A DNA stretch of 64,000 nt. Origin: an uncultured Acidobacteriota bacterium. Its GTDB lineage: Bacteria; Acidobacteriota; UBA6911. The stretch covers positions 320,001 to 384,000 of the forward strand of contig CAWHCF010000022.1 in NCBI GenBank assembly GCA_963827655.1. The letters run 5' to 3'. Positions 8,963 to 61,908 of the stretch are shown in pieces. The notes beneath the pieces are model-generated. The model saw only the letters and a list, made by a program, of their open reading frames with translations. It had not been told where the DNA came from and did not search any database. A program made the translations under genes and the position numbers. How positions within the stretch are numbered: position 1 is the stretch's first letter; every line of letters begins with the position of its first letter.

Positions 8963-11900
8963 CTACTGTGTCCCGCGTTTTCCGCGATACGTGATCCACA
9001 TGGGCGAAACCCAAACGATCTCGCCATCCGCCTGCTCGCCGCGAACATAGTAGTAACTGGTCTTTCCCGGCTCCGCCGCCGTATCCCGCCAGGTGAGATC
9101 CACAGACGCCGTCTTGGGCTCCGTCGTGTACACAAACCGATTATCCTTGATGACGTGTACCTTGGCGAATGGCGCGGTGCCAACCAGCTTCAACGTAAGC
9201 GAAGGCCAGTCCGGCGTTTCGAATTCGTCCCCCATCATGTGCTTGCCGCTGCGCAAGTCGGCGAGAATGTCATCGGTCGCTGCATAGACGTGCCGTTTCT
9301 GAAACGCTTCGAGCACTGCCTCGCGCGTCGGTGCCGAAACATACACATTGCAGTAGCTCATGTGCGTCGAAACGTGATCCGAACTCGCCTGGAATCCAAG
9401 CTTGTATCCCTTTTCAAGCGCAAGCGAGACAAAACCCTTGGGGCGCCATCCTCCGATCGAGTCTTGCTCGTTGTTGGAGCGAGGGGCTTGCGGCATTTCG
9501 TAGTTCTGCCTCAACGCCTGGTAAATCTCGACGATGGGTTCAGTCCGTGGGTCGTTATCCCGCCAGTCGGTCCCCATGTTGGTGGCGCTGGTGTGAACCG
9601 CCACGATGCCGTTGAAATGGCGTAGATACTTGTAAAGCATCTGCGTGTCGGGGGCTGGTCCGGTCGAGTCGTCGGCCACCTTGGGGAGCCGCGGCAACGT
9701 GCGTACGCCGCGCTGGGCGAAGATGATGTTTCGATGACCCTCCGGGTATGACACGCTCCGTTCGTAGTTGAACATCGGAGTGAAGACGCCCGGCTGGTGA
9801 AATATATCGGTCAGCTTCTGCGTGATCCACCAGGAGTATTCCCGGCCGAACCCGTTGTCGTGGTCGCAGCAGCCAAGCCAGTCGAGCGCGGCAGCATCCA
9901 GGGAGTAGCGCCAGGCATCCCAGATCGAGCCGTCTCGCGCCGCATCCATCGAGATTTCTGTGTGGCGGTGGAACTCGCCGCGAAGAACACGGTAATCGAC
10001 GCCGTTGATCCGGGCGCGATAGTCGCGCAGCCGTCGTACGTGGGCCCCCTCCGGCTCTACCGCCGCAGGGCCGGTCTCGCGCGCGGCCGATTCGAGCTTG
10101 GCGGGCTTGACCTTTTCGGCCAGGACGATACGGGAGGCATAAAGATCGTTGTTGTAACGATCGTCAAAAGTAGCGAACTGTTGGGTCGCACCGTAGACAT
10201 TGCGCAGGGTCTGATCAAACTGTTGCCGCCCATCGGAGGATCGTACAATCAGCAGCTCGCCCGCGGCCGTGGAAGCAAGAGCCGGTCGATTGTCCAGAAG
10301 GTTGTCGCTGTGCGGGATGAAGATCGGAAGCGTCCAGGAAGCGCCGTCGAACGAGACCACGTTCTCGAACCACACGGTTCCGATCGAGGTCCACCAGATC
10401 GGCTGAGCGGTACGGTAGGCGAGCCACACCCGGCCTCCCCGATCCGACAGCAGCCGCGGGATAGCTGTTCAGCGGGCGCGGCGGAGGCTGCGGCGGCGCG
10501 GCTGGGCGCGCGGTTCTTGGCCAATTGAGGATCGGGCTGTGTTCCCTTTAAACCCTTCTCCCTGGCGTTCCGTCGCGTCCACCATTCGGTTAGGAACACC
10601 GGGCAGAACCGCCCCTAGATTCCCGGGCACAAACGCCTGCTCTCCCTGCCATACCTTCACTTGAATCCAGCGCCCCTGATAGAGCGCCATTCCCGTGGTT
10701 TCGTGGGCGCCAAAGTCTTTGCCCCAGCTCTCGTCCGATTCTTCCCACGCCACCCATAAACGACCGGATTCATCATAGGCGAGGGAAGGGTAAGCCTCAT
10801 AGCGAGCGCTCGCGGCGGCCGGAACCTCCGTTCCGGCGCGGCCGGAGGCGTCGAAGGTGCGAAAATATACGTCGTAGTTCCCTTTCCGATAGCTGTCCCA
10901 GGCCACAGCGACCTCGCCTTTGGGAGAGGCCGCGATCGCAGGATTCCACTCGTTGCCGGCGGATGAAGCCACGGTTAACTCCTCCGCAAAAGACGTCCCT
11001 TGCTGGCGCGACGCGCGAATTTGCGAGCGTCCGTTTCGAAATGCCTGCCATGCCACCCAAACCCGTCCCTGGGCATCCGTGGCGGCGGCGGGCACGATGT
11101 CTGCGCCGCGGTCCGTCGAAAGGCGCAGCGTTTTTCCAGGCTTGCCGGCTTCAAACGGGCGCGCATAAAGGTCGAAATTCCCGCCGGTGTTGGCCGACCA
11201 GAAGACCCATACGCGATTCGATCCATCGACCGCGACGGCCGGCTTGTAGAGATCGCCGCGAGCTTCGGAGACGGAAACCGGTTCCGACCACTTGCCGTCC
11301 GAATAGCGCGCAAGAAGAATCTGGTCTCCCCCGGTCGGCTCAGCCAGCTCAGCCAGGTTCTTGGGAGCCTCCGGGATGCCCAGACGAACGCCGGTGAATT
11401 TGGCATTGGGAGTGAACTGAAGATATGCGATCCAGAGGTTACCGGCTTGATCCACGGCCGCCGCCGGATAGTCCTGGTCTTCGCGCGACCGCGAGACCTG
11501 AGTGGTCGCCGGAACGCGGTCCACCATGACGCGGCCATCCAGAAACTTCGCCGAGGTGCCGTAGGGGACGTCCGCGGGCCGGAACTGAAATTTCCCCTGG
11601 GTCGTGTCCACCCGCACTTCGGACGCGTCGACGAGCTTGCTGAAGGTAGCGACCACGCCGTTCGCCGCTACCGGTCGTTCCGCGGCAGCGCCAAAGACGC
11701 GCACCTGGTGCGTCGAAATCTTCCAGCCCGAGGTTCCTTCCAGCCGATCCTCCTCGTCGAAGCGCCAGGGTTCGAGACGCGCGACAGAGCCCGGCGAGAC
11801 CACCAGGGATCCATCCCATGGAGTCGGCTTTGTGTCTGTGAGCCCAAGCAAGATCCGGAAGCTGATCTCTTCCTCGGGCGCCGCCGGAACCGGCGGCGTG

Positions 11901-24668: not shown

Positions 24669-26336
24669 GTGAGAGCCCGGAGTCAGCTCTTTGAAACCGG
24701 CACGCAGGTCGACTTCGCGGTCGTCGGTTCGGGCGCTGCCGGCGGAATCGTGGCGAAGGAACTGGCTGCAGCCGGATTCACGGTTGTTGTCCTCGAGCAG
24801 GGACCCTATCTCAGAGAAGAGGATTTCAAGCACGACGAGCTGAAATACGTGGGGCAGGCGGAAATCACCAACGACTATAAATTGCAGCCCAATACTTTTC
24901 GCAAAACTCCCAGAGCCAAGGCTGTTCTCCAGCCGGCCGTGGGTTATGCCCGGCTGGTGGGAGGCGGCTCCGTCCACTTCACCGCCAATTACTGGCGTTT
25001 TCACCAGATTGATTTTGAGGAGCGCAGCCGGCTGGGGTCGATCGCAGGAACGGGATTTACCGATTGGCCCATTCGTTACTCGGACCTCGAGCCTTACTAC
25101 ACCAAGGCCGAGTGGGAGCTCGGGGTGTCGGGACTTGCCGGCGCAAGCCCGTGGGATCCGCCGCGTTCCCAGCCTTATCCTCTGCCGCCACTCCCGGTCA
25201 AGTCATCAGGCATACTTCTGGAGCGAGCGGCGCGCAAGCTGGGCTGGCATGCTTTCCCTGCTCCGATGGCGATCATTTCTCAACCGTATCGGGGCCGAGG
25301 AGCATGCCTGCACTGCGGCTTCTGCAAATTCTTCGGCTGCGAAGTAAGAGCCAAGTCAAGCACCGCGGCCACCGTGATTCCGATGGCCGAAAAGACGGGA
25401 CGGTGCCAGATTCGTCCAAATTCCTACGTGCGGAAGATCGAGACGGATAAAGCCGGACGGGTTACGGGGGTTATCTACTTCGATGCAGAACGACGCGAGC
25501 ATTTACAGAAAGCCAGAGCAGTCGTTCTCTGCGCCAACGGGGCGGAGACCCCACGCCTGCTCCTGATCTCGAAATCGAATCTGTTTCCGAACGGGCTGGC
25601 AAATTCCAGCGGGCTGGTCGGAAAGTATCTCATGTTCAACGGCGGCGCGGCTGCGGGCGGGGTTTTCGAGCGCCAATTGAACGAATACAAGAGCGTGGTT
25701 GTGACCCGGATCATCCACGACTTCTATGACTCCGACCCGAAGCGAGGTTTCTATGGCGGCGGCGGCATCGATGCGCGTTTCGACTTTCTTCCGATCGGGT
25801 TTGCGCTCGGGGGCTTGCCCCAGGATGCGCCGCGTTGGGGAACCGCATATAAGGCCATGCTCAAGGAGTACTTCACTCGAACAATGTACGTGATCTCCCA
25901 CACTACCTCGCTGCCAGTGGAGACTAACAGCATTTCTCTCGATGCCAATGTGAAAGACGCCTGGGGACTGCCTGCGATACGAGTTACCTATCAGGATCAT
26001 CCGGACGACATGCGCACGATGAAGTTTTTTCTTCAGCGCAGTTCCGAACTGCTGGAGGCGGCCGGAGCCCTCAAAAAGTGGGAATATCCGGTTGAAGAAC
26101 AGACCTTTTCCTTGCATCTTCTGGGCACCTGCCGCATGGGTGACAATCCCGGCAAGTCCGTCGTGGACCAGTTTCACCGCGCGCACGATGTTCCCAACCT
26201 GTTCATCGTAGATGGCAGCAGTCTGGTCACGTCGGGCCGGGGGCAACCGACCTGCACGATTCAAGCGCTGGCTTATCGCGCGGCCGATCACATCATTCGG
26301 TCCGCCAAATCAGGAGAGATCAAGACGTCCGTTTGA
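24669..26336 (+). CDS. GMC-family FAD oxidoreductase
   Basis: GSGAAGG, CLHCGFC...C and HLLGTCRMG. Confidence 0.9.
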   Translation: MRARSQLFETGTQVDFAVVGSGAAGGIVAKELAAAGFTVVVLEQGPYLREEDFKHDELKYVGQAEITNDYKLQPNTFRKTPRAKAVLQPAVGYARLVGGGSVHFTANYWRFHQIDFEERSRLGSIAGTGFTDWPIRYSDLEPYYTKAEWELGVSGLAGASPWDPPRSQPYPLPPLPVKSSGILLERAARKLGWHAFPAPMAIISQPYRGRGACLHCGFCKFFGCEVRAKSSTAATVIPMAEKTGRCQIRPNSYVRKIETDKAGRVTGVIYFDAERREHLQKARAVVLCANGAETPRLLLISKSNLFPNGLANSSGLVGKYLMFNGGAAAGGVFERQLNEYKSVVVTRIIHDFYDSDPKRGFYGGGGIDARFDFLPIGFALGGLPQDAPRWGTAYKAMLKEYFTRTMYVISHTTSLPVETNSISLDANVKDAWGLPAIRVTYQDHPDDMRTMKFFLQRSSELLEAAGALKKWEYPVEEQTFSLHLLGTCRMGDNPGKSVVDQFHRAHDVPNLFIVDGSSLVTSGRGQPTCTIQALAYRAADHIIRSAKSGEIKTSV

Positions 26337-26366
26337 TTGACGATTTACGATTGACGATTGACGATT
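26334..26366 (+). repeat. Heptamer (TTGACGA) arm starting at the GMC stop codon
   Basis: TGATTGACGATTTACGATTGACGATTGACGATT. Confidence 0.9.
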
Positions 26367-31774: not shown

Positions 31775-32614
31775 ATGTCAATGAATCGCTGGAGTAGACT
31801 GCTCATTGCGCTCGTGCTCGCGTCTCCCGTCTCGGCAGCTGAGTTGCAGAAGCCTGCCGCTTCACCCGCGATCCTCGCGCAGCCGTTCGCTTCCCGAGAA
31901 GAAATCGAGGAATTCTTACGAAATGCCAGGATCGTCAAAGCGAAAGGGACCGGTATCGGCATTACAAACCCCCTGAAGCTTACGCTCGACGATGGCCGCG
32001 TACAGCACTTCGCGGTCTTCAAGAGCATTGACGAGAGGAAGCCCGGAGTGACCCAGCTCGCCGCCAGCACCGAAATCGATTTCAAGGATTCCTGGATGTT
32101 CGAGGTCGCCGCCTACGAGCTCGACAAGCTGCTGGGACTCGACATGGTCCCGGTAACCATCGAGAGGACTTATAACGGACATAAGGGATCGCTGCAGTTC
32201 TGGATTGATAACTGCATAATGGAGAGCGACCGGTTGAAGCGAAAGCTCAATCCCCCTGATCCCACGTCGTGGAAACAGCAAATTTTCAAGGTCCGAGTCT
32301 TCGATAACCTGGTCTATAACATCGATCGCAATCTCGGAAACCTGCTGATCACGCCCGAATGGAAATGTTACATGATCGATCATTCGCGCAGCTTCAAGAA
32401 TGTCGACGCCCTCAAGTCGCCGAAAGACCTGACCTACTTCTCTCGTTCGTTGATTGAGAGTCTTCAAAAACTCGACGAGCAAACGGTGAAGACGCGCTGC
32501 GAGAAATACCTCACGCTTTACGAAGTGAGAACCATGCTCCGCCGCCGCGATAGGATCGTTCAGCTCTTTACCAGTCTCCTGGCGGAAAAAGGCGAGAGCA
32601 TAGCCTACCCATAG
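31775..32614 (+). CDS. Secreted protein-kinase-like protein (PI3/PI4-kinase-like fold)
   Basis: Signal peptide; AVFK, EVAAYELD, DRNLGN and IDHSRSF kinase-like motifs. Confidence 0.6.
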   Translation: MSMNRWSRLLIALVLASPVSAAELQKPAASPAILAQPFASREEIEEFLRNARIVKAKGTGIGITNPLKLTLDDGRVQHFAVFKSIDERKPGVTQLAASTEIDFKDSWMFEVAAYELDKLLGLDMVPVTIERTYNGHKGSLQFWIDNCIMESDRLKRKLNPPDPTSWKQQIFKVRVFDNLVYNIDRNLGNLLITPEWKCYMIDHSRSFKNVDALKSPKDLTYFSRSLIESLQKLDEQTVKTRCEKYLTLYEVRTMLRRRDRIVQLFTSLLAEKGESIAYP

Positions 32615-32698
32615 GATCTAGGATTCAGTAGGATTCGGTTAGGAATCCTGAATCCTAGATCCTAGATCCTGGCTCCTGAATCCTGATCCTGGATCCTA
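32612..32698. repeat. Heptamer (TAGGATC/CAGGATT) inverted arms filling the gap between two convergent stop codons
   Basis: TAGGATCTAGGATTCAG... / ...GAATCCTAGATCCTAGATCCTGG...GGATCCTA. Confidence 0.85.
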
Positions 32699-34396
32699 AA
32701 CCTGGTTGATCGGCAGCTTGATCGTAAAGGTGGAACCCTGTCCGAGCTCGCTGGACACCTGGATTGAACCCTGGTGCTCCTTGACTATGCTATAGGCGAC
32801 CGCAAGGCCCAGACCGACTCCCACCCCCACACCTTTGGTGGTGAAGCCCGGATCAAAGATCTTGTCAAGGTGCTCAGCGGGAATACCCGACCCGGTGTCC
32901 CTGATGGAAATCACGATTTCGTCCCCTTCTCGCCGGGTGTCTACGAACACCTGTCCCTTTCCCTTGATTGCCTGGCAGGCGTTCGTCAACAGGTTCATGA
33001 AGGTTTCGTTAAGGAGGGCCGGATAGCACGGAAGTGCCGGAACATCGCCGAGGTTCAGCACCACTTCGACGCGCGGCTGAACCGAAGGGTCCAGCACCTG
33101 GACCGTCGCGGTGAGGCCGTCATTAATATTGACCACCTTGAATTCCGACTCGTCGAGCCGAGCGAACGAGATTAACGAACGCATCACGCGAACAATGCGC
33201 GAGCACGCCGAGACGCTCTCCTGCGCAATATCAATAAGGTGCCGCAAGAGTTTGCTCTCGTCGGGCGGTCTTCCCTCGGTGGTGGCCAGCCGCCCGAACA
33301 TAACCATCAGAAGCTCGAGATTCGCCTTAAGGGCTCCCAGGGGACTGTTGACCTCGTGGGCGATTCCAGCTACCAGCCGGCTCAACGAAGCCATTTTCTC
33401 ATGCTGATAGAGCTTGAGCTCCGCCTGGCGCAGGGCGGCGGTCCGTTCCGCAACCTCGAGCTCGAGTTCTTCGTTGGCGCGCTTTATGGCATCGAAGAAC
33501 CGGGCATTCTCGACCGAAAGGCTGATCTGGGAGGCCACGGCGCACAATAACGTAAGATCGTCGTGGGTGAAGGCGCCGATAGCCCGATTGTTTTCGAGGT
33601 ACAGGATGCCGAGCACGCCGGATTTCCCGACCAGCGGCGCGCACACGATCGACCGCAGCCCTCGCAGCACCACGCTGTGGCCATGGGCAAATCGAGGGTC
33701 GGTCCCTGCATCCGCGGTGATGATGGCTTTGCGGTCGTTCATGATGCGCTGGGCGATCGTCGAGGAGAGGGGCCCGGAAGGAGAGTCCGCCACGGCTTCG
33801 TCGCGCCGGCAAATTACGGCGGGGCGCAGCGTGGCTCCCTCTTCTTCGAGAAGGAATATCGCCCCCTGCTCGGCCTGGGTGCTGGACAACAGGATTTCCA
33901 CCGCTTTACGGGAGACATCTTCCAGCGAGCGCACTTCGGACAGCGCGCGGCTCAGGTCGAACAAGAGCCGGAGGGTTCGGCGCTCCTTGGCCGCCGCCAT
34001 GTCCGAGTCCTCACCCGGTCCGCGGCGGACACCGGACGCAATCTCCTGCACTAGCTGGTCATAGTCTTCTTCGAGAGTTACCGTCATGTCCGATACCGGA
34101 ATCGGCCTTCCCTCTACGCTATAGACAAGGGTATGGGTGCCGACTCTGATCTCGTCGTTGTGCTTCAAGATTGCGTGCTTCACTCTTTTTCCATTGACGA
34201 AGATGCCGTTGTAGCTGTCGAGGTCGCTGACCGAGAAATCGTCGCCTTCGCGAGCTATGACTCCATGCCGGCGCGAGACTCCCGCCCCTTCGAGGACGAT
34301 CTGGTTGTCCGAGGCGCGGCCGATCGAGTAGCTCGGTTCCACCAGCGCCATTTTGGTCAGCTGGCCCGAGGACTTCTTGATTCGCAGGCTGGGCAT
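32696..34396 (-). CDS. FHA-GAF sensor histidine kinase
   Basis: FHA (IGR, SRRH, S.NG), GAF (RSIVCAPL), H-box AHEVNSP, N-box NLLTNA and G-boxes. Confidence 0.9.
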
Positions 34397-39319: not shown

Positions 39320-40327
39320 CTAGTACTCGCAGAGCGGGCTGTGGACCTCATACGGCTTCGCCGGTTTCATGGGTCCTTCAGCGTTATGGCAATCCAGGCA
39401 GATCGCGGTCTTCACAACCAGACGGTGCTTGGAAGTAGACCCGGAGTGAACCTGGTGACACGACAGGCAGGTTGTGTCGGAGCCGAAGACCGCGACGTCG
39501 CGGATACTTCGCAGGACGTGGCGATCGCCGGGGTTCAGGCGCACATCGTCCGCTCGGGAAAAGTCGACCTCGAAATCCTGGAAGAGATTGTCCCCCGCTA
39601 CGAAGTTGTTCGCGTAAGGGAGTCCGGTGGAGCGCGACTTTCCCATCCGGATATGGCACTGCGCGCAGATCGAAGTAATGGCCTGGCTCTCGGTTCTGCG
39701 CTTCTTCGACAACAAGATCAGCGACGTGTCATTCGTATGCTCCAGGCTGACGCTGCCGTGGCATGTGAAGCAGTCCAATCCAAACGCCGAGAAGGTCCTG
39801 GTTTTTGGATCTACCGCCGTGGAGTGGCACCCGGCGCATCGGTTCGCGAACTTGTCTTTGTCCCAGGCCGGTCGCTCGACTTCAATCCACCTCTCCACAC
39901 TCCGGTCGTGAGTTAACACCGCCTGTGTGGAAAGTAACGCGAATTTTCCGTAGCCTTGTTTCTTGAGGAAACGGACGTGACGACGGCTTCCCATGACGTA
40001 TTCAATCTCGGAAACCATTCGAGCAAGAGCGGGCTCTCCTCGAACGACACGCTGCAGCTCCTGAGCATCCTCCTGTTGGCGCACCGCCGTGCCGTGCGTG
40101 TTCTTCTGCCATGTCGGCCCTATGTCATTCCGGTGACAGAAAAGGCACTCGTCACCGTGGACATATTCAGGTATCGGCTTGCCCGCATGGTTGCCACCCC
40201 AGGCCGAAGGATCCAGCTTTTTCTCCTGCGGCCTGACGGGGCCGAGCCCCCACAGCAGGAAAATCGCTGCGGCAGCGGCGAACCGAATTTCAGAAGACAT
40301 AAGCCCGGCGATATCTCTCGGTTTCAT
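39320..40327 (-). CDS. Hexaheme c-type cytochrome
   Basis: Signal peptide; six CxxCH motifs (CLFCH, CAGCH, CFTCH, CAQCH, CLSCH, CLDCH). Confidence 0.85.
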   Translation of the reverse strand: MKPRDIAGLMSSEIRFAAAAAIFLLWGLGPVRPQEKKLDPSAWGGNHAGKPIPEYVHGDECLFCHRNDIGPTWQKNTHGTAVRQQEDAQELQRVVRGEPALARMVSEIEYVMGSRRHVRFLKKQGYGKFALLSTQAVLTHDRSVERWIEVERPAWDKDKFANRCAGCHSTAVDPKTRTFSAFGLDCFTCHGSVSLEHTNDTSLILLSKKRRTESQAITSICAQCHIRMGKSRSTGLPYANNFVAGDNLFQDFEVDFSRADDVRLNPGDRHVLRSIRDVAVFGSDTTCLSCHQVHSGSTSKHRLVVKTAICLDCHNAEGPMKPAKPYEVHSPLCEY

Positions 40328-40447
40328 GGTCGTTGCCCAGCCGCTTCATTGAAGAACAAGAATAATGAAACCATAGATCAGGAAAACAAGAAACCAGGAA
40401 ACTAGCCAAGGGCTGCGCCCTTGATATCCCGCTGCGCGGGATATAGG

Positions 40448-40664
40448 GCCAGGAGTCAGGAGCCAGGAGCCAGAATGGCCTTTGCACATGCATTCAGCAG
40501 GCGGCTCAAGTCCTCCCGGAGATTCATACCTCCTTCTTCAGGTTTGCCGTAACCCAGGTCGTGTGCCAGAATCAGGGTTGCATCAGATCACCCCATCTCG
40601 TGATGTTATCCTTTCGGTAGTGCCAATCAACTTCTTGCTCCTGACTCCTGACTTCTGGCTTCTA
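40448..40664. repeat. Heptamer (CAGGAGT/CAGGAGC) inverted arms enclosing a gene remnant
   Basis: GCCAGGAGTCAGGAGCCAGGAGCCAGAAT ... GCTCCTGACTCCTGACTTCTGGCTTCT. Confidence 0.85.
40456..40587 (-). pseudogene. C-terminal remnant of a four-helix-bundle protein (23S rRNA IVP / TIGR02436-like)
   Basis: Hand translation: TLILAHDLGYGKPEEGGMNLREDLSRLLNACAKAILAPGS*; the LILAxDLGY motif is typical; in-frame stop upstream; own stop lies in the repeat arm. Confidence 0.6.
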
Positions 40665-40786
40665 ACGTGAACAGAATTCTCGTAAGCTCGGACATATCGG
40701 ACATAACGGTCTAATGGCTTCAACTCGCGCTTGATTTTGATAGCGCGGTGAAACAAGATGCATACTTCCTGAAAGGAGCCTCAGAG

Positions 40787-42091
40787 GTGAACGCGATCCT
40801 TCGTATCACGGGCGCGATAGCAGCGCTCTTTCTGGTCCCGTCACGGGCGCCGGCAGAAGATTGGCTGAGACAAATCGAGAATGAAACCGCGAAAATCGAG
40901 GCTCAAATCACCGCCCTGCGCCACCAGATCCATCAGTATCCCGAGCTTTCAAACCGGGAAGAGAAGACCGCAGGCCTCGTGGCGGATCACCTCAAGAAAC
41001 TTGGCCTGGAGGTCAAAACCGGTATTGCGCATCACGGGGTGGTGGCGCTGCTCAAAGGAGGGCGCCCGGGTCCGACCATAGCGGTGCGGGCCGATATGGA
41101 CGCGCTCCCAGTGACCGAGGACACGCCCCTCCCCTTCAAGTCCCGCGTCCGCGCCAGCTACCTGGGACAGGATGTGGGCGTAATGCATGCCTGCGGCCAC
41201 GACGTGCACACGGCCGTACAGCTCGGCGTGGCCTCGGTGCTGAACTCGATTCGAGCCAATATCCCCGGCACGATCAAGTTCATTTTTCAGCCCGCCGAGG
41301 AAGGACCGCCCCCACCCGAGGAAGGTGGCGCGCGCATGATGGTGAAACAAGGAGTGCTCGAAAATCCAAAGCCGGAAGCAATCTTCGGCCTCCACACGTT
41401 TTCCGAACTGCCGGTTGGAGTTCTCGGTTTTACCGAAGGGCCGGCGTTTGCCGCCACCGATACTTTCGAAGTCAAGATCATCGGCAAACAGGCGCACGGC
41501 GCCGCGCCCGAGTTATCGGTCGACCCGGTGGTCACGGCGGCCCAGTTTGTTCTGGCTTTGCAGACGATCAGGGCGCGCATTCTCTCTCCGCTCGAGCCGA
41601 GCGTAATCACAGTCGGAACGATTCACGGCGGACAGCGCCACAACATCATCCCGGCCGAGGTGACGCTTTCGGGAACCATCCGTTCCTACAGCGATGAAGT
41701 CCGGAACACCGTCGAAGAAAAATTTCGAAATATTTTGAAAGGCGTCACGGCGGCGGCCGGCGCGACCTTCGAGATCGTGCGTTACGAACGAGGTGTCCCC
41801 GCCGTCATCAACAATCTTTCACTCACCCGGGAATCGATCCCGGCGCTGGAGCGCGTGGTGGGAAAGGAGAATGTGAAGCGGATTCCTCCCACCATGGGAG
41901 GCGAGGATTTTTCCTATTTCGCGAATGTGATTCCCGGATTTTTCTATCGCCTGGGGATGGTAAAACCCGGGACAATGTCGGGCGGCCATCACACTCCGAC
42001 TTTTCTGGCCGATGATTCCAGCGTCGCCGTCGGCATCAAGGCGATGAGTCATCTTCTGCTGGATTATCTGGGCAGGCGCAGCAAGCAGTAA
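40787..42091 (+). CDS. M20D amidohydrolase, secreted
   Basis: RHQIHQYPELS, RADMDALP, HACGHD, QPAEE and GEDFS. Confidence 0.9.
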   Translation: MNAILRITGAIAALFLVPSRAPAEDWLRQIENETAKIEAQITALRHQIHQYPELSNREEKTAGLVADHLKKLGLEVKTGIAHHGVVALLKGGRPGPTIAVRADMDALPVTEDTPLPFKSRVRASYLGQDVGVMHACGHDVHTAVQLGVASVLNSIRANIPGTIKFIFQPAEEGPPPPEEGGARMMVKQGVLENPKPEAIFGLHTFSELPVGVLGFTEGPAFAATDTFEVKIIGKQAHGAAPELSVDPVVTAAQFVLALQTIRARILSPLEPSVITVGTIHGGQRHNIIPAEVTLSGTIRSYSDEVRNTVEEKFRNILKGVTAAAGATFEIVRYERGVPAVINNLSLTRESIPALERVVGKENVKRIPPTMGGEDFSYFANVIPGFFYRLGMVKPGTMSGGHHTPTFLADDSSVAVGIKAMSHLLLDYLGRRSKQ

Positions 42092-42260
42092 GCAGTAAGC
42101 TGCTTGCTGCCTGCTTACTGCTATTGCTTGATATCTAATACCGAAATGAATAGAATGCGTGCCGAATTCGGCACAATTGAGGGTCTTCGTAAGGGCCATG
42201 AAGTGCACAGGCAGCGTCGACTCACTGCCCACTGCTTACTGCCTACTATTTACTGCTTTT
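42082..42260. repeat. Heptamer (AAGCAGT / ACTGCTT) repeat arms
   Basis: AAGCAGTAAGCAGTAAGC includes the amidohydrolase TAA; reverse arms at about 42100-42130 and 42222-42258. Confidence 0.8.
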
Positions 42261-53205: not shown

Positions 53206-53263
53206 TCAGGATTTAGGATTCATGATTCGGCACGACGTCTCGATCCTGAATCCTAGATCCTGA
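53206..53263. repeat. Heptamer (CAGGATT / AATCCTG) inverted arms
   Basis: TCAGGATTTAGGATTCATGATT ... GATCCTGAATCCTAGATCCTGA; same family as 32612. Confidence 0.8.
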
Positions 53264-56941: not shown

Positions 56942-58221
56942 CTATTTTCGAATCCTCACCAGGCTGCGGTTGATGTCGGAGATCCTGGCGACACCGGCCA
57001 GTCCCATGTCGAGGGCAAGTTCGGTCCGGAGCAGTTCCAATACCCGGGACACTCCACGCTGTCCGAATGACGCAAGTCCCCAGAGGTAAGGCCGGCCGAT
57101 CCCGACCGCCGTCGCCCCCAGCGCGAGCGCTTTCAGGATATCGGTGCCGCGCCGAAACCCGCCGTCGATCAGCAGCGGCATTTTCCCGCCCGCAGCCTCG
57201 ACGCACTCCGGTAGAGCTTCAATCGTAGCCCCGACATGGTCGAGCTGTCGAGCGCCATGGTTCGAAACCACGGCCGCCGAGACACCGGTCTTCACGCATT
57301 TCTCGGTGTCTTCCGCGGTGAGAATTCCTTTGATGATGATGGGCAACTTCGTCACGTCCCGAAGTTGCTGGATGGCTTCCCAGGTCGGGGTCGGAAAAGG
57401 ACGCGACGGGTACTCGCCGGCCTGCCATGGCCTGTCGGTCGGCTTGAAGATCAAGTTGCCTTGAGCGTCGCGAGGAACGCCCTCCATCTCGCACCAAACG
57501 CGAATAAACCGGTTCCGCATGCTGCGCTCCCGGTGCGACACGTGCATGTTGTCGACCGTGAAGCAGATCCCCCCGCAGCCCATGTCTTCCAGCTTTTCCA
57601 CGAAATCGACCATCATGCTCTTGGTGCGCAGTTGCCCGCCGAGGGTATACTGCCACCAGGTCTTCGGACCCTTGCCCGAGGCGAGAAACTTGTCGATGCC
57701 GCCGTTCGTCACCATGACCGCATTCGACGCCGCCGCCGCCGCCGCCGTTTCCTGCTCGCCGTTGCGGAAGAAACAGTTCTTACCCCCCGCGGGACAAATG
57801 AATATCGGATACTCCAGCTTGTTGCCCAGCAACGTGGTCGACAGATCGATCTTGTGCACATCGGTCAGGAACCGGGGTCTCAGGATGATGCGATTGAAAG
57901 CTTCACGATTGTCTCGCAACGAGACCTCGTCCTCGGCTCCCTCGGACATGTAATCCCATGCGACCTTGTCGACCTTGGCCTGCGCCAGCTTTTCAAAATC
58001 AAAGACATTGATGGGGTGGAGCAGTGGATCCTCGGTCTTGATCAGATCCTGCCCCATGAGTAACGGGGACGCCAACGCGAACTGCGCCAGCTTGAGCAGT
58101 GCCTGGCGCCGACTGACGATTGACGATTGACGATTTACGATTGACGATTGATTCGATTTACGATTGACGATTGACGATTGACGATTGAACGGCTCTGGTA
58201 ATGCCGGATGTCGATTGACAT
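56942..58221 (-). CDS. FMN-dependent alpha-hydroxy-acid oxidase/dehydrogenase with Tat-like leader; 5' end interrupted by heptamer array
   Basis: IIKGI, SNHGARQLD and DGGFRRGTD; SRRQALL in frame upstream of 58075; candidate ATG 58221 is out of frame. Confidence 0.8.
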
Positions 58222-58364
58222 CGGCGAACTCACTCTCAGCTCAATTCAAGAATGACAGGTATTCGATCAACTCCGTCACAACGTTGGTTTCACAAAACTC
58301 AAGCGCTCTGCATCTACCGCTTATCGCTTTTCAATCGTAAATCGTCAATCGTAAATCGTAAATC
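58113..58364. repeat. Heptamer (TTGACGA) array 58113-58189 and inverted arm 58331-58364
   Basis: About ten units on the left; the right arm encodes the last residues and stop of the sulfatase (KIYDLRLTIYD*). Confidence 0.92.
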
Positions 58365-61761: not shown

Positions 61762-61908
61762 TCGAGCGCTCCTTTCATTGCGATTTATACTGTATCAATG
61801 ACGAGTATCTTCCTTCGTTTTTTTCTTTTTTCCTTAGTCTTTAGTCTTTTGTCTTTGTTACACTAGCGCCACCCTAGCATCGCGGACCTCATTCAGACGG
61901 AGGATAAC

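Follow-up and report, generated by a model that had tools for sequence, protein, structure and literature searches.

The window, that is, the whole 64,000-nucleotide stretch analysed here, comes from an uncultured Acidobacteriota bacterium (contig CAWHCF010000022.1, positions 320,001 to 384,000) and contains a short element situated in a divergent promoter region, with a multihaem cytochrome gene and an M20 peptidase gene as its neighbours. The element consists of two inverted arrays of heptamers, or arms, around the remnant of a gene for a four-helix-bundle protein, and on the outside of the arms lie sequences related to the ends of a 2.15-kb repeated unit described below. Its parts, with 5' and 3' referring to the strand of the gene, are:

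40400 to 40447, minus strand: right-terminal module of the 2.15-kb unit, adjoining the 3' arm, with two short hairpins and then GGCTAGTT
40448 to 40475, minus strand: 3' arm of about four heptamers (NCTCCTG/GCTCCTG type on the gene strand), which encodes the last six codons and the TGA
40456 to 40587, minus strand: pseudogene fragment of a PF05635/TIGR02436 four-helix-bundle protein, with its C-terminal 36-39 codons (profile positions 87-122 of 124)
40588 to 40629, no strand: spacer in place of the expected 5' two-thirds of the gene, without likeness to related 5' ends
40630 to 40664, minus strand: 5' arm of about five heptamers (CAGGAGT/CAGAAGT type on the gene strand), with three open frames
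40666 to 40713, minus strand: probable left-terminal module of the 2.15-kb unit, TTAGACCGTTATG ... hairpin ACGAGAATTCTGTTCACG; this is the weakest part

The minus-strand open reading frame (ORF) at 40456-40587, taken from stop to stop, has 43 codons and translates as SDATLILAHDLGYGKPEEGGMNLREDLSRLLNACAKAILAPGS, with the end ...LSRLLNACAKAILAPGS; its TGA (40456-40458) and its last six codons are themselves part of the left array. Tandem Repeats Finder (TRF) called period-7 runs at 40448-40473 and 40630-40663, and a search for repeats delimited the inverted arms as 40448-40475 and 40632-40659, which are 28 nt long, 89% complementary, and 156 nt apart. The sequence CAGGAGNCAGGAG has three exact matches in the 64 kb, every one of them in the two arms; with up to two mismatches, there are 14 matches in the window, 6 of them in the arms, compared with 6.7 ± 2.4 in shuffled sequences. 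The predicted fold of the RNA has the arms paired (z = −3.0). These results bear out a previous interpretation of this DNA (the sequence-only reading), which had placed a gene on the minus strand with its stop within an arm and its 5' half absent. That reading bounded the element at 40448-40664, and this core stands; the element nevertheless appears to extend to about 40400-40713 and to carry the termini of the 2.15-kb unit, both of which had been missed, as had the correspondence of the design to the published 23S rRNA intervening sequence.

The nature of the ORF follows from its relatives. A word-indexed search for longer proteins retrieved P0001 (153 aa); over the C-terminal 36 residues of this protein, its identity to the fragment is 69%, and the alignment ends equally far from the stop in both. 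P0001 is a member of PF05635 (Pfam E = 9.5e-37; 125.9 bits against a cut-off of 33.8), and it also passes TIGR02436 (119.4 against a cut-off of 24). When A1, a profile hidden Markov model (HMM) made from 55 close relatives, was applied to the 2003 ORFs of at least 12 aa in the window, the fragment was the sole match (E = 9.5e-9), the next best ORF having an E of 3.2; hhalign gave the fragment a probability of 98.7% (E = 2.1e-16, 39 columns). The proposed four-helix-bundle identity is upheld by these three comparisons, and, on the strength of this similarity, the window ORF is a pseudogene fragment of a PF05635/TIGR02436 protein. The complete domain has around 105-125 residues in four helices, of which the window copy covers profile positions 87-122 of 124 only. 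Comparison of the 58-nt stretch that separates the fragment from the 5' arm with the 5' ends of 79 related genes gives a mean score of 13.5, the shuffled value being 13.3. Two candidates in this region were rejected. One is an N-terminal remnant in the frame ..ITRWGDLMQP*, which was detected neither by an unfiltered HMM search nor by DNA alignment to 79 gene starts. The other is a 12-nt identity, AAGGATAACATC, of the spacer to the start of a 537-aa ORF of the repeated unit, which has the wrong orientation and was treated as chance (a score of 24 against a shuffle maximum of 22 in two loci, the remaining loci not being above shuffles).

The relatives of this gene show what its arms are. One scan of species-representative genomes gave 593 relatives, and the 80 best of them were taken as loci (numbered with the prefix L); their identities are 55-76%, and the sample takes in Acidobacteriota, Cyanobacteria, Verrucomicrobiota, Bacteroidota, Planctomycetota, Nitrospirota, Desulfobacterota, Clostridia, and others. 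As called by TRF at the threshold used, and within an upstream range of 250 nt, period-7 arrays lie upstream of the gene in 44 of the 80, at or just after its 3' end in 54, and on both sides in 36. Up to 250 nt from the family genes, there are 1.69 such arrays per kb, compared with 0.20 per kb elsewhere in the same loci, an 8.5-fold difference, and, among the TRF rows for the loci and the window, period 7 (370) is far commoner than period 6 (53) or period 8 (89). The arm unit varies among loci (CAGGAGT, CAGAATT, CAGAAGC, CAGGAGA, and others), and the two arms of a locus match each other: of 36 loci, 18 have a 5' unit that is the reverse complement of the 3' one, and 13 have a 5' unit that departs from this by a single base. 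The mean within-locus match is 6.28 of 7 compared with 5.23 ± 0.13 when arms are permuted between loci, a value reached by 0 of 2000 permutations, and, in 35 loci, the arms are in Watson–Crick register at 855 of 958 aligned positions (89%). The parent proposed in the sequence-only reading, an arm, a four-helix-bundle gene, and an inverted arm, is thus found elsewhere, with both arms in 36 of the 80 and a complementarity specific to the locus; that reading had suggested looking for 7-mer flanks at other genes of this type, and such flanks are there.

The finer anatomy of these cassettes ties the arrays to the gene. The stop codon, which is TGA in 55 of 79 genes, lies within the 3' array in 37 of 53 and precedes it by at most 30 nt in 11 of 53. 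At the other end, 21 of 37 genes have a start codon that runs into the inner edge of the 5' array or is no more than 10 nt from it, typically as ..CAGAATG, and GGAG is present in the 5' unit in 17 of 43. Tails of the PDS/SDS/PGS/SGS type, which are the translation of such heptamers, end 86 of the 120 closest proteins, the window copy ending in ..APGS*; likewise, its 5' arm translates as ..KPEVRSQEQEV.., the peptide pattern of N-terminal extensions in 13 of 120 close relatives. A host ORF of at least 200 codons on the same strand reads into the 5' arm in 10 of 43 loci, with an ATGA overlap with the cassette start twice; in L009, for example, an upstream ORF of 467 codons crosses the 5' arm and ends in such an overlap. 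In L006 and L009, from different orders, the cassettes occupy one and the same chromosomal site and are followed by the same gene, the 5' array being far longer in L006 (about 9850-10000) than in L009 (9961-9995). Two copies in L050 are homologous across the gene and the 3' arm but not beyond. The median dN/dS (ratio of nonsynonymous to synonymous substitution rates) of the relatives is 0.17 (range 0.08-0.28, 67 pairs), which indicates purifying selection.

The window copy is not the only one to have lost its interior. Another internally deleted cassette, in L037 (10100-10480) and 1.4 kb downstream from an intact one, retains between its two arms 11 N-terminal and around 27 C-terminal codons (MKEPAKTFEDL.. 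and then, out of frame, ..SKLLEAYSKAILHSDS*); upstream of it lies a block composed of the heptamer types AACCGTG, ACAGGAG, and AACCAAC, and this block recurs two to three times. Internally deleted derivatives, as had been predicted, therefore exist in two independent instances.

The best DNA matches of the window copy are copies inside a 2152-bp unit that occurs twice, at different sites and with 99.9% identity, in one Acidoferrales genome (L001 8275-10426 and L002 8275-10426), and that has relatives in L003-L005, L007, L008, L016, L017, and L020. The unit has conserved hairpin ends. From its left end, it runs through a 537-aa ORF in opposite orientation, then the four-helix-bundle gene and the 3' heptamers, to the right end with its two hairpins and GGCTAGTT. 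Positions 40400-40447 of the window align with the ends of L001, L003-L005, L007, L017, L020, and L046 with 43 invariant columns, and a 23-nt motif of the right end is exact at 40407-40429, where it is the sole window match at up to three mismatches (0.01 expected). This motif is present in 10 of the 80 loci, always just after the 3' arm, and the sequences of L001 and L002 part right after it. On the other side, positions 40666-40713 resemble, by eye, the left ends of L001, L004, L005, L017, and L020 (16 invariant columns); the hairpin motif of the left end is exact in 6 of 88 loci.

The 537-aa ORF, which is absent from the window, adjoins the family gene in 10 of 80 loci, and, in L016 and L017, a second paralogue with 25% identity is in tandem with it. 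Its product has no family in Pfam or NCBIfam, transposase models included, and is found in the ESM Atlas in unnamed clusters only, from Acidobacteriota and Verrucomicrobiota. The AlphaFold2 model is poor (predicted local distance difference test, pLDDT, of 56 from a 6-row alignment), and a Foldseek search with it against the PDB gave no match at E ≤ 1e-3, the best (E = 1.8e-3) offering a hint of a C-terminal winged helix. The ORF may encode an undescribed mobile-element protein.

That the window feature is the relic of a heptamer-armed four-helix-bundle cassette can be held with high confidence. The complete interpretation, for which a probability of roughly 0.78 seems appropriate, is that of an inert, internally deleted, selfish cassette of the intervening sequence (IVS) type, nested in the end modules of a 2.15-kb Acidobacteriota unit. 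The copy itself is dead, and a consequence for the host is unlikely. A search of Rfam over 39900-41200 gave no match at E ≤ 1, and a scan for promoters and terminators gave a promoter-like site (40737-40766) and a terminator-like site (40810-40828), both outside the element.

The working of an intact cassette might be as follows. Intact relatives show the cassette in an intergenic position, in many cases right behind a co-oriented host gene; its 5' arm, (CAGRANN)n, would supply the ribosome-binding site and the start, since it often holds AGGAG and ends in ..CAGAATG, the positions being observed and the function proposed; and its 3' arm, the reverse complement of the 5' arm, encodes the last residues and the TGA. 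These three steps are, taken jointly, likely. The arms could then pair as a stem of around 30 bp around the ORF, a potential evident in the loci, and, by analogy with Coxiella, RNase III might cut this stem; the odds for pairing and cleavage together are judged to be slightly short of even. More tentatively, the protein, which is under purifying selection, could be a nucleic-acid-binding pentamer, as suggested by its homology to Avd and by pentameric crystals, with the arms as a candidate ligand. Finally, copies decay through internal deletion and leave arm-only hairpins behind, as the window and L037 copies illustrate.

The design extends to more distant members of the family. Distant paralogues in the same loci have other units and periods (AGCGTGT, CTTCCCAG, AACAGACC, ATAGCTC, and others), and flanking arrays with a period of 7-9 accompany 12 of 14 secondary paralogue matches, some of them judged by eye; in L036, L073, and L074, paralogues of one genome bear differing arms. 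PLSDB contains 25 plasmids with relatives, annotated as “four helix bundle protein” or “S23 ribosomal protein”; in the 8 examined (2 close and 6 distant, reference strains included), all the copies have arrays, 7 of them on both sides (6 inverted and 1 direct). The family itself amounts to 29,729 clusters at 50% identity (E ≤ 1e-3). One of its members, XCC0516 of Xanthomonas campestris, is the PF05635 protein crystallised as PDB 2GSC, and a published table lists an array of four GGGAATC units over its start codon, 6 nt after bccP (PMC4692102, supplement file 2, row 27); the available sections of that paper make no comment on the position of this XCC0516/XCC0517 array.

A separate observation concerns two of the plasmids: in a Pseudanabaena plasmid (L083) and in a plasmid of Anabaena sp. 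90 (L084), the armed gene is located between cas6 and cas4, on the same strand, in a CRISPR-cas operon.

Several results weigh against this interpretation or parts of it. The sequence-only reading had named the lack of a profile hit for the fragment as a reason to abandon its homology to PF05635, and, taken to the letter, this test was negative, because hmmscan of the 43-aa fragment against Pfam and NCBIfam gave no family at E ≤ 10. Among the 80 relatives, 26 have no 3' array and 36 have no 5' array at the TRF threshold, and the arrays of L083 are direct rather than inverted (AAAAGCT × 15.6 and AAAAGCC × 14). As regards the larger unit, the hairpin motif of the left end has only one match in the window but with 3 mismatches, for which 0.22 are expected by chance; no target-site duplication is evident at the ends of the unit or the window copy; and, since the full-length 2.15-kb relatives are without a 5' arm, at least two events, or another variant of the unit, are needed to account for the window copy. 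As regards mechanism, the arm mismatches comprise 21 that would be G-U on the sense strand, 28 on the antisense strand, and 54 on neither (p = 0.39). Since there is no bias towards RNA pairing, such pairing is not demonstrated, and an inverted repeat acting at the level of DNA is equally possible. The sequence-only reading had also expected protein clade and heptamer to vary together. Within the subfamily they do not: the heptamer type changes 40 times on the protein tree compared with 42.4 ± 1.5 times when shuffled, and co-variation is found only as anecdote, between distant paralogues. This independence speaks against a protein that recognises the exact unit. Lastly, the authors who described the Coxiella IVS considered, in the part of PMC4990558 available, that its S23p protein is probably not made and is decaying, unlike the purifying selection found here.

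The window has other heptamer elements, which are relevant to the origin of the arms:

227-260, 378-410, 448-479, 16092-16125/16166-16199, and 26335-26366 (solo): GATTGAC-type arms
58110-58188/58333-58364 and 59830-59862/59990-60023: further GATTGAC-type arms
46855-46873/46974-46998: GATTGCG/CGCAATC inverted pair, 100 nt apart, between convergent genes
32613-32704, 53206-53260, 42078-42121, and 42220-42256: CAG-type hairpins with almost no interior (CAGGATT/AATCCTG; CAGTAAG/CTTACTG)
61819-61856: T-rich run of TAGTCTT/TTGTCTT, located upstream of the gene at 61867

Each GATTGAC arm is a copy of a single 33-35-nt sequence, with five GATTGAC/GATTTAC heptamers, and the copies are up to 100% identical, even in the position of the T variant; most occur as inverted pairs, 38-187 nt apart, which enclose interiors that are mutually unrelated. 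They abut host start and stop codons, the TGA of the gene ending at 26336 being the first TGA of the array there, and a hairpin of the same type is present in the acidobacterial locus L015 (3556-3689). Metagenomic orthologues of an FMN-dependent dehydrogenase (P0121-P0124; up to 93% identity) have predicted N-termini that read through the GATTGAC array (58088-58225, minus strand), and the array is therefore conserved at that site in related genomes. Close to the start of the window, a 58-nt segment with a GATTGAC arm is duplicated 151 nt apart (201-258 and 352-409), and a 26-nt piece belonging to the gene at 485-2095, at its 3' end, recurs downstream of the array (271-296 and 496-521), which suggests a local duplication around the arms.

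According to the sequence-only reading, these other elements would be deleted derivatives of the same cassette. For the GATTGAC hairpins, this idea is not supported: only the arms are common to them, their interiors are unrelated, and no gene remnant was found. Indeed, in the A1 profile search, none of the other heptamer elements of the window scored as a four-helix-bundle remnant. A search with the peptide encoded by the GATTGAC array, which is a weak one as it covered 37 candidates only, gave six matches, none of them PF05635: four FMN-dependent dehydrogenases, corresponding to the host gene downstream of the array, one protein without a domain, and one peptidase. The CAG-type hairpins are another matter. 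One of them, at 42078, gives the M20 peptidase gene its TAA stop. CAG-type orphan inverted pairs in the loci have the order of a cassette, with the CAG arm first, in 4 of 4 cases, and the window hairpins at 32613-32704, 53206-53260, and 42078-42121 have it too. It is plausible that these empty hairpins are fully emptied cassettes, for which they are the best candidates in the window.

One alternative is that the arrays came first, as independent dispersed hairpins comparable to repetitive extragenic palindromic (REP) or short tandemly repeated repetitive (STRR) sequences, between which four-helix-bundle genes insert or preferentially persist, so that the arms would not be part of the gene's own element. 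The 80 loci do contain more orphan arrays than gene-linked ones (216 and 132), around 80% of 181 orphan arrays differ from the arm unit of the resident gene, and the window has about 10 GATTGAC arms, near-identical copies with unrelated interiors and one of them solo, without a linked gene. A similar abundance is reported for X. campestris, with 186 GGGAATC arrays, 70 of them in inverted pairs (PMC4692102). Yet start and stop codons are built into the arrays, the array-encoded C-terminal tail is kept in 86 of 120 relatives, paralogues of one genome have differing arms, and the L050 copies share the gene with its 3' arm and nothing further; from these four observations it follows that arm and gene travel together, and an origin in the arrays is rather unlikely. 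The opposite position is that of the sequence-only reading in its full form, in which every heptamer element of the window is a deleted cassette, a pentamer binds five 7-nt units, and clade and heptamer co-evolve. It can draw on the two deleted derivatives, on the cassette-like order of the CAG-type orphans, and on an array length whose mode is 30-32 nt (77 of 348 arrays) and which, in the GATTGAC arms of the window, is 32-34 nt. Other results in its favour are that PDB 2GSC and 2RLD each have five chains, the title of the 2GSC paper naming five four-helix bundles, and that the resident unit is matched by 20% of the orphan arrays compared with 11.8 ± 2.4% when permuted. The other window elements are nonetheless without gene remnants, the GATTGAC interiors are unrelated, the array peptide led, among its 37 candidates, to orthologues of a host gene and to no PF05635 protein, and the heptamer type does not follow the protein tree. 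In this full form the model is doubtful. The idea of a parent cassette is right for the window element and its family and is unproven for the GATTGAC hairpins.

The 2.15-kb unit raises another possibility, that of a DNA transposon whose ends are the arms and end modules and which the 537-aa protein moves; the four-helix-bundle gene would travel in it as cargo, and the window copy would be a deletion derivative like a miniature inverted-repeat transposable element (MITE). The two near-identical copies of the unit at differing sites, the proximity of the 537-aa ORF to the gene in 10 of 80 loci, and the presence in the window of the exact right end and the probable left end are in accordance with this. 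Against it are the lack of any Pfam or NCBIfam family for the protein, with its unnamed ESM Atlas clusters, a low-confidence model with nothing beyond a winged-helix resemblance, some 70 of 80 armed cassettes without the 537-aa neighbour, and unit ends that are outside the arms, with no target duplication found; such a transposon is improbable as the explanation of the cassette. It might also be argued that the likeness of the ORF is fortuitous and that the heptamers are regulator sites for the divergent cytochrome and peptidase genes. The element does lie in a divergent promoter region, and heptameric direct repeats are described as regulator sites in other bacteria (PMC5930380, in the part available). 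An hhalign probability of 98.7%, an exact 23-nt motif common to the ends of mobile units elsewhere, and the recurrence of the arm–gene design in many phyla make this explanation very hard to sustain. A relic of an armed cassette, nested in the ends of the larger unit, is the interpretation retained here.

What this would mean can be put briefly. An IVS with an ORF for an S23p/four-helix-bundle protein has been known for around 30 years, and heptamer repeats are over-represented in many bacterial genomes, with no mechanism for this found in the literature searched. The rule proposed here is that a very large family is usually located between inverted tandem-repeat arms that supply start and stop, in many phyla and mostly outside rRNA. 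If true genome-wide, it would link the IVS, the “four helix bundle protein” genes scattered among operons, and at least part of the heptamer excess. A broader and, for the present, unlikely extension is that PF05635 cassettes are the parents of the GATTGAC arrays, the GGGAATC arrays of Xanthomonas, the cyanobacterial STRR, and the TAACTGA arrays of Beggiatoaceae, with an Avd-like pentamer maintaining or spreading arrays of around five units in trans. This would be a partnership like that of REP sequences and their associated tyrosine transposases (RAYT) but without a known nuclease, for which the rRNA IVS would be one special landing site.

In the REP/RAYT system and the related REPIN hairpins, the gene for an HUH (Y1) transposase is flanked by inverted short repeats, which also occur as orphans and as hairpin doublets. 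The cassettes described here resemble this system in having a gene between inverted copies of a repeat, with many orphans and hairpin doublets, in intergenic positions near stop codons. They differ from it in that the flanked gene is that of a small helical PF05635 protein without an HUH nuclease domain, heptamers in tandem stand in place of the imperfect palindromes, and most of the orphan arrays differ from the resident arms. The published heptamer repeats are closer in form: over-represented intergenic heptamers are reported for Xanthomonas (GGGAATC) and Nostoc (GGGGAYT) in PMC4692102, and TAACTGA repeats for Beggiatoaceae, Cyanobacteria, and Bacteroidetes in PMC4679880, with the STRR of Calothrix cited alongside. 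Like the arms, they form arrays of about four units, are intergenic, occur often in convergent pairs and at start and stop codons, and have a patchy distribution across phyla; the difference is that, here, a specific gene family is linked to the arrays.

Insertion sequences (IS) and MITEs provide a second comparison, since the window copy retains both end modules of a multi-copy 2.15-kb unit, the left one probably, with the interior deleted. It differs from them in having no recognisable transposase or target-site duplication and in ends that are not simple inverted repeats. A third comparison is with Avd of the diversity-generating retroelements, which has a homologous four-helix-bundle fold: P0001 matches the bAvd-like family PF22296 (E = 1.6e-6) and NCBIfam DivGenRetAVD, the latter with 34.9 bits compared with a cut-off of 80. 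There is no reverse transcriptase among the neighbours of the window copy; no search aimed at template or variable repeats was made.

The closest known system is the 23S rRNA IVS. The available part of PMC4990558 describes that of Coxiella burnetii as a stem of 28-bp terminal inverted repeats with the S23p ORF in its loop; the ATG is immediately preceded by GACAGAT in two or three tandem copies and a degenerate heptamer. RNase III cuts the stem, at the first repeat; the number of repeats differs by strain, and one strain has a 176-bp deletion of the ORF. The element is regarded there as selfish and horizontally spread, Leptospira and others being cited. In the open full-text literature, no paper was found that ties PF05635 or four-helix-bundle genes generally to tandem-repeat arms, the heptamers of the Coxiella IVS being the sole precedent, so the design is, through them, partly in print already. 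The window copy differs from this precedent in lying between protein-coding genes instead of in a 23S helix (25 or 45), in missing the 5' two-thirds of its ORF, in being nested in the ends of a larger unit, and in that RNase III cleavage, established in Coxiella, is here an extrapolation. The resemblance is nevertheless a detailed one: a PF05635 ORF in the loop of a stem of around 28 bp, with heptamers of the CAGRNNN type before the start. The arms of the window copy are 28 nt long, 89% complementary, and paired in the predicted fold, its 5' heptamer arm is in place, and, in 21 of 37 relatives, the start is at or near the array. Since the Coxiella IVS shares this design, “IVS-type element” is the best name for the cassette.

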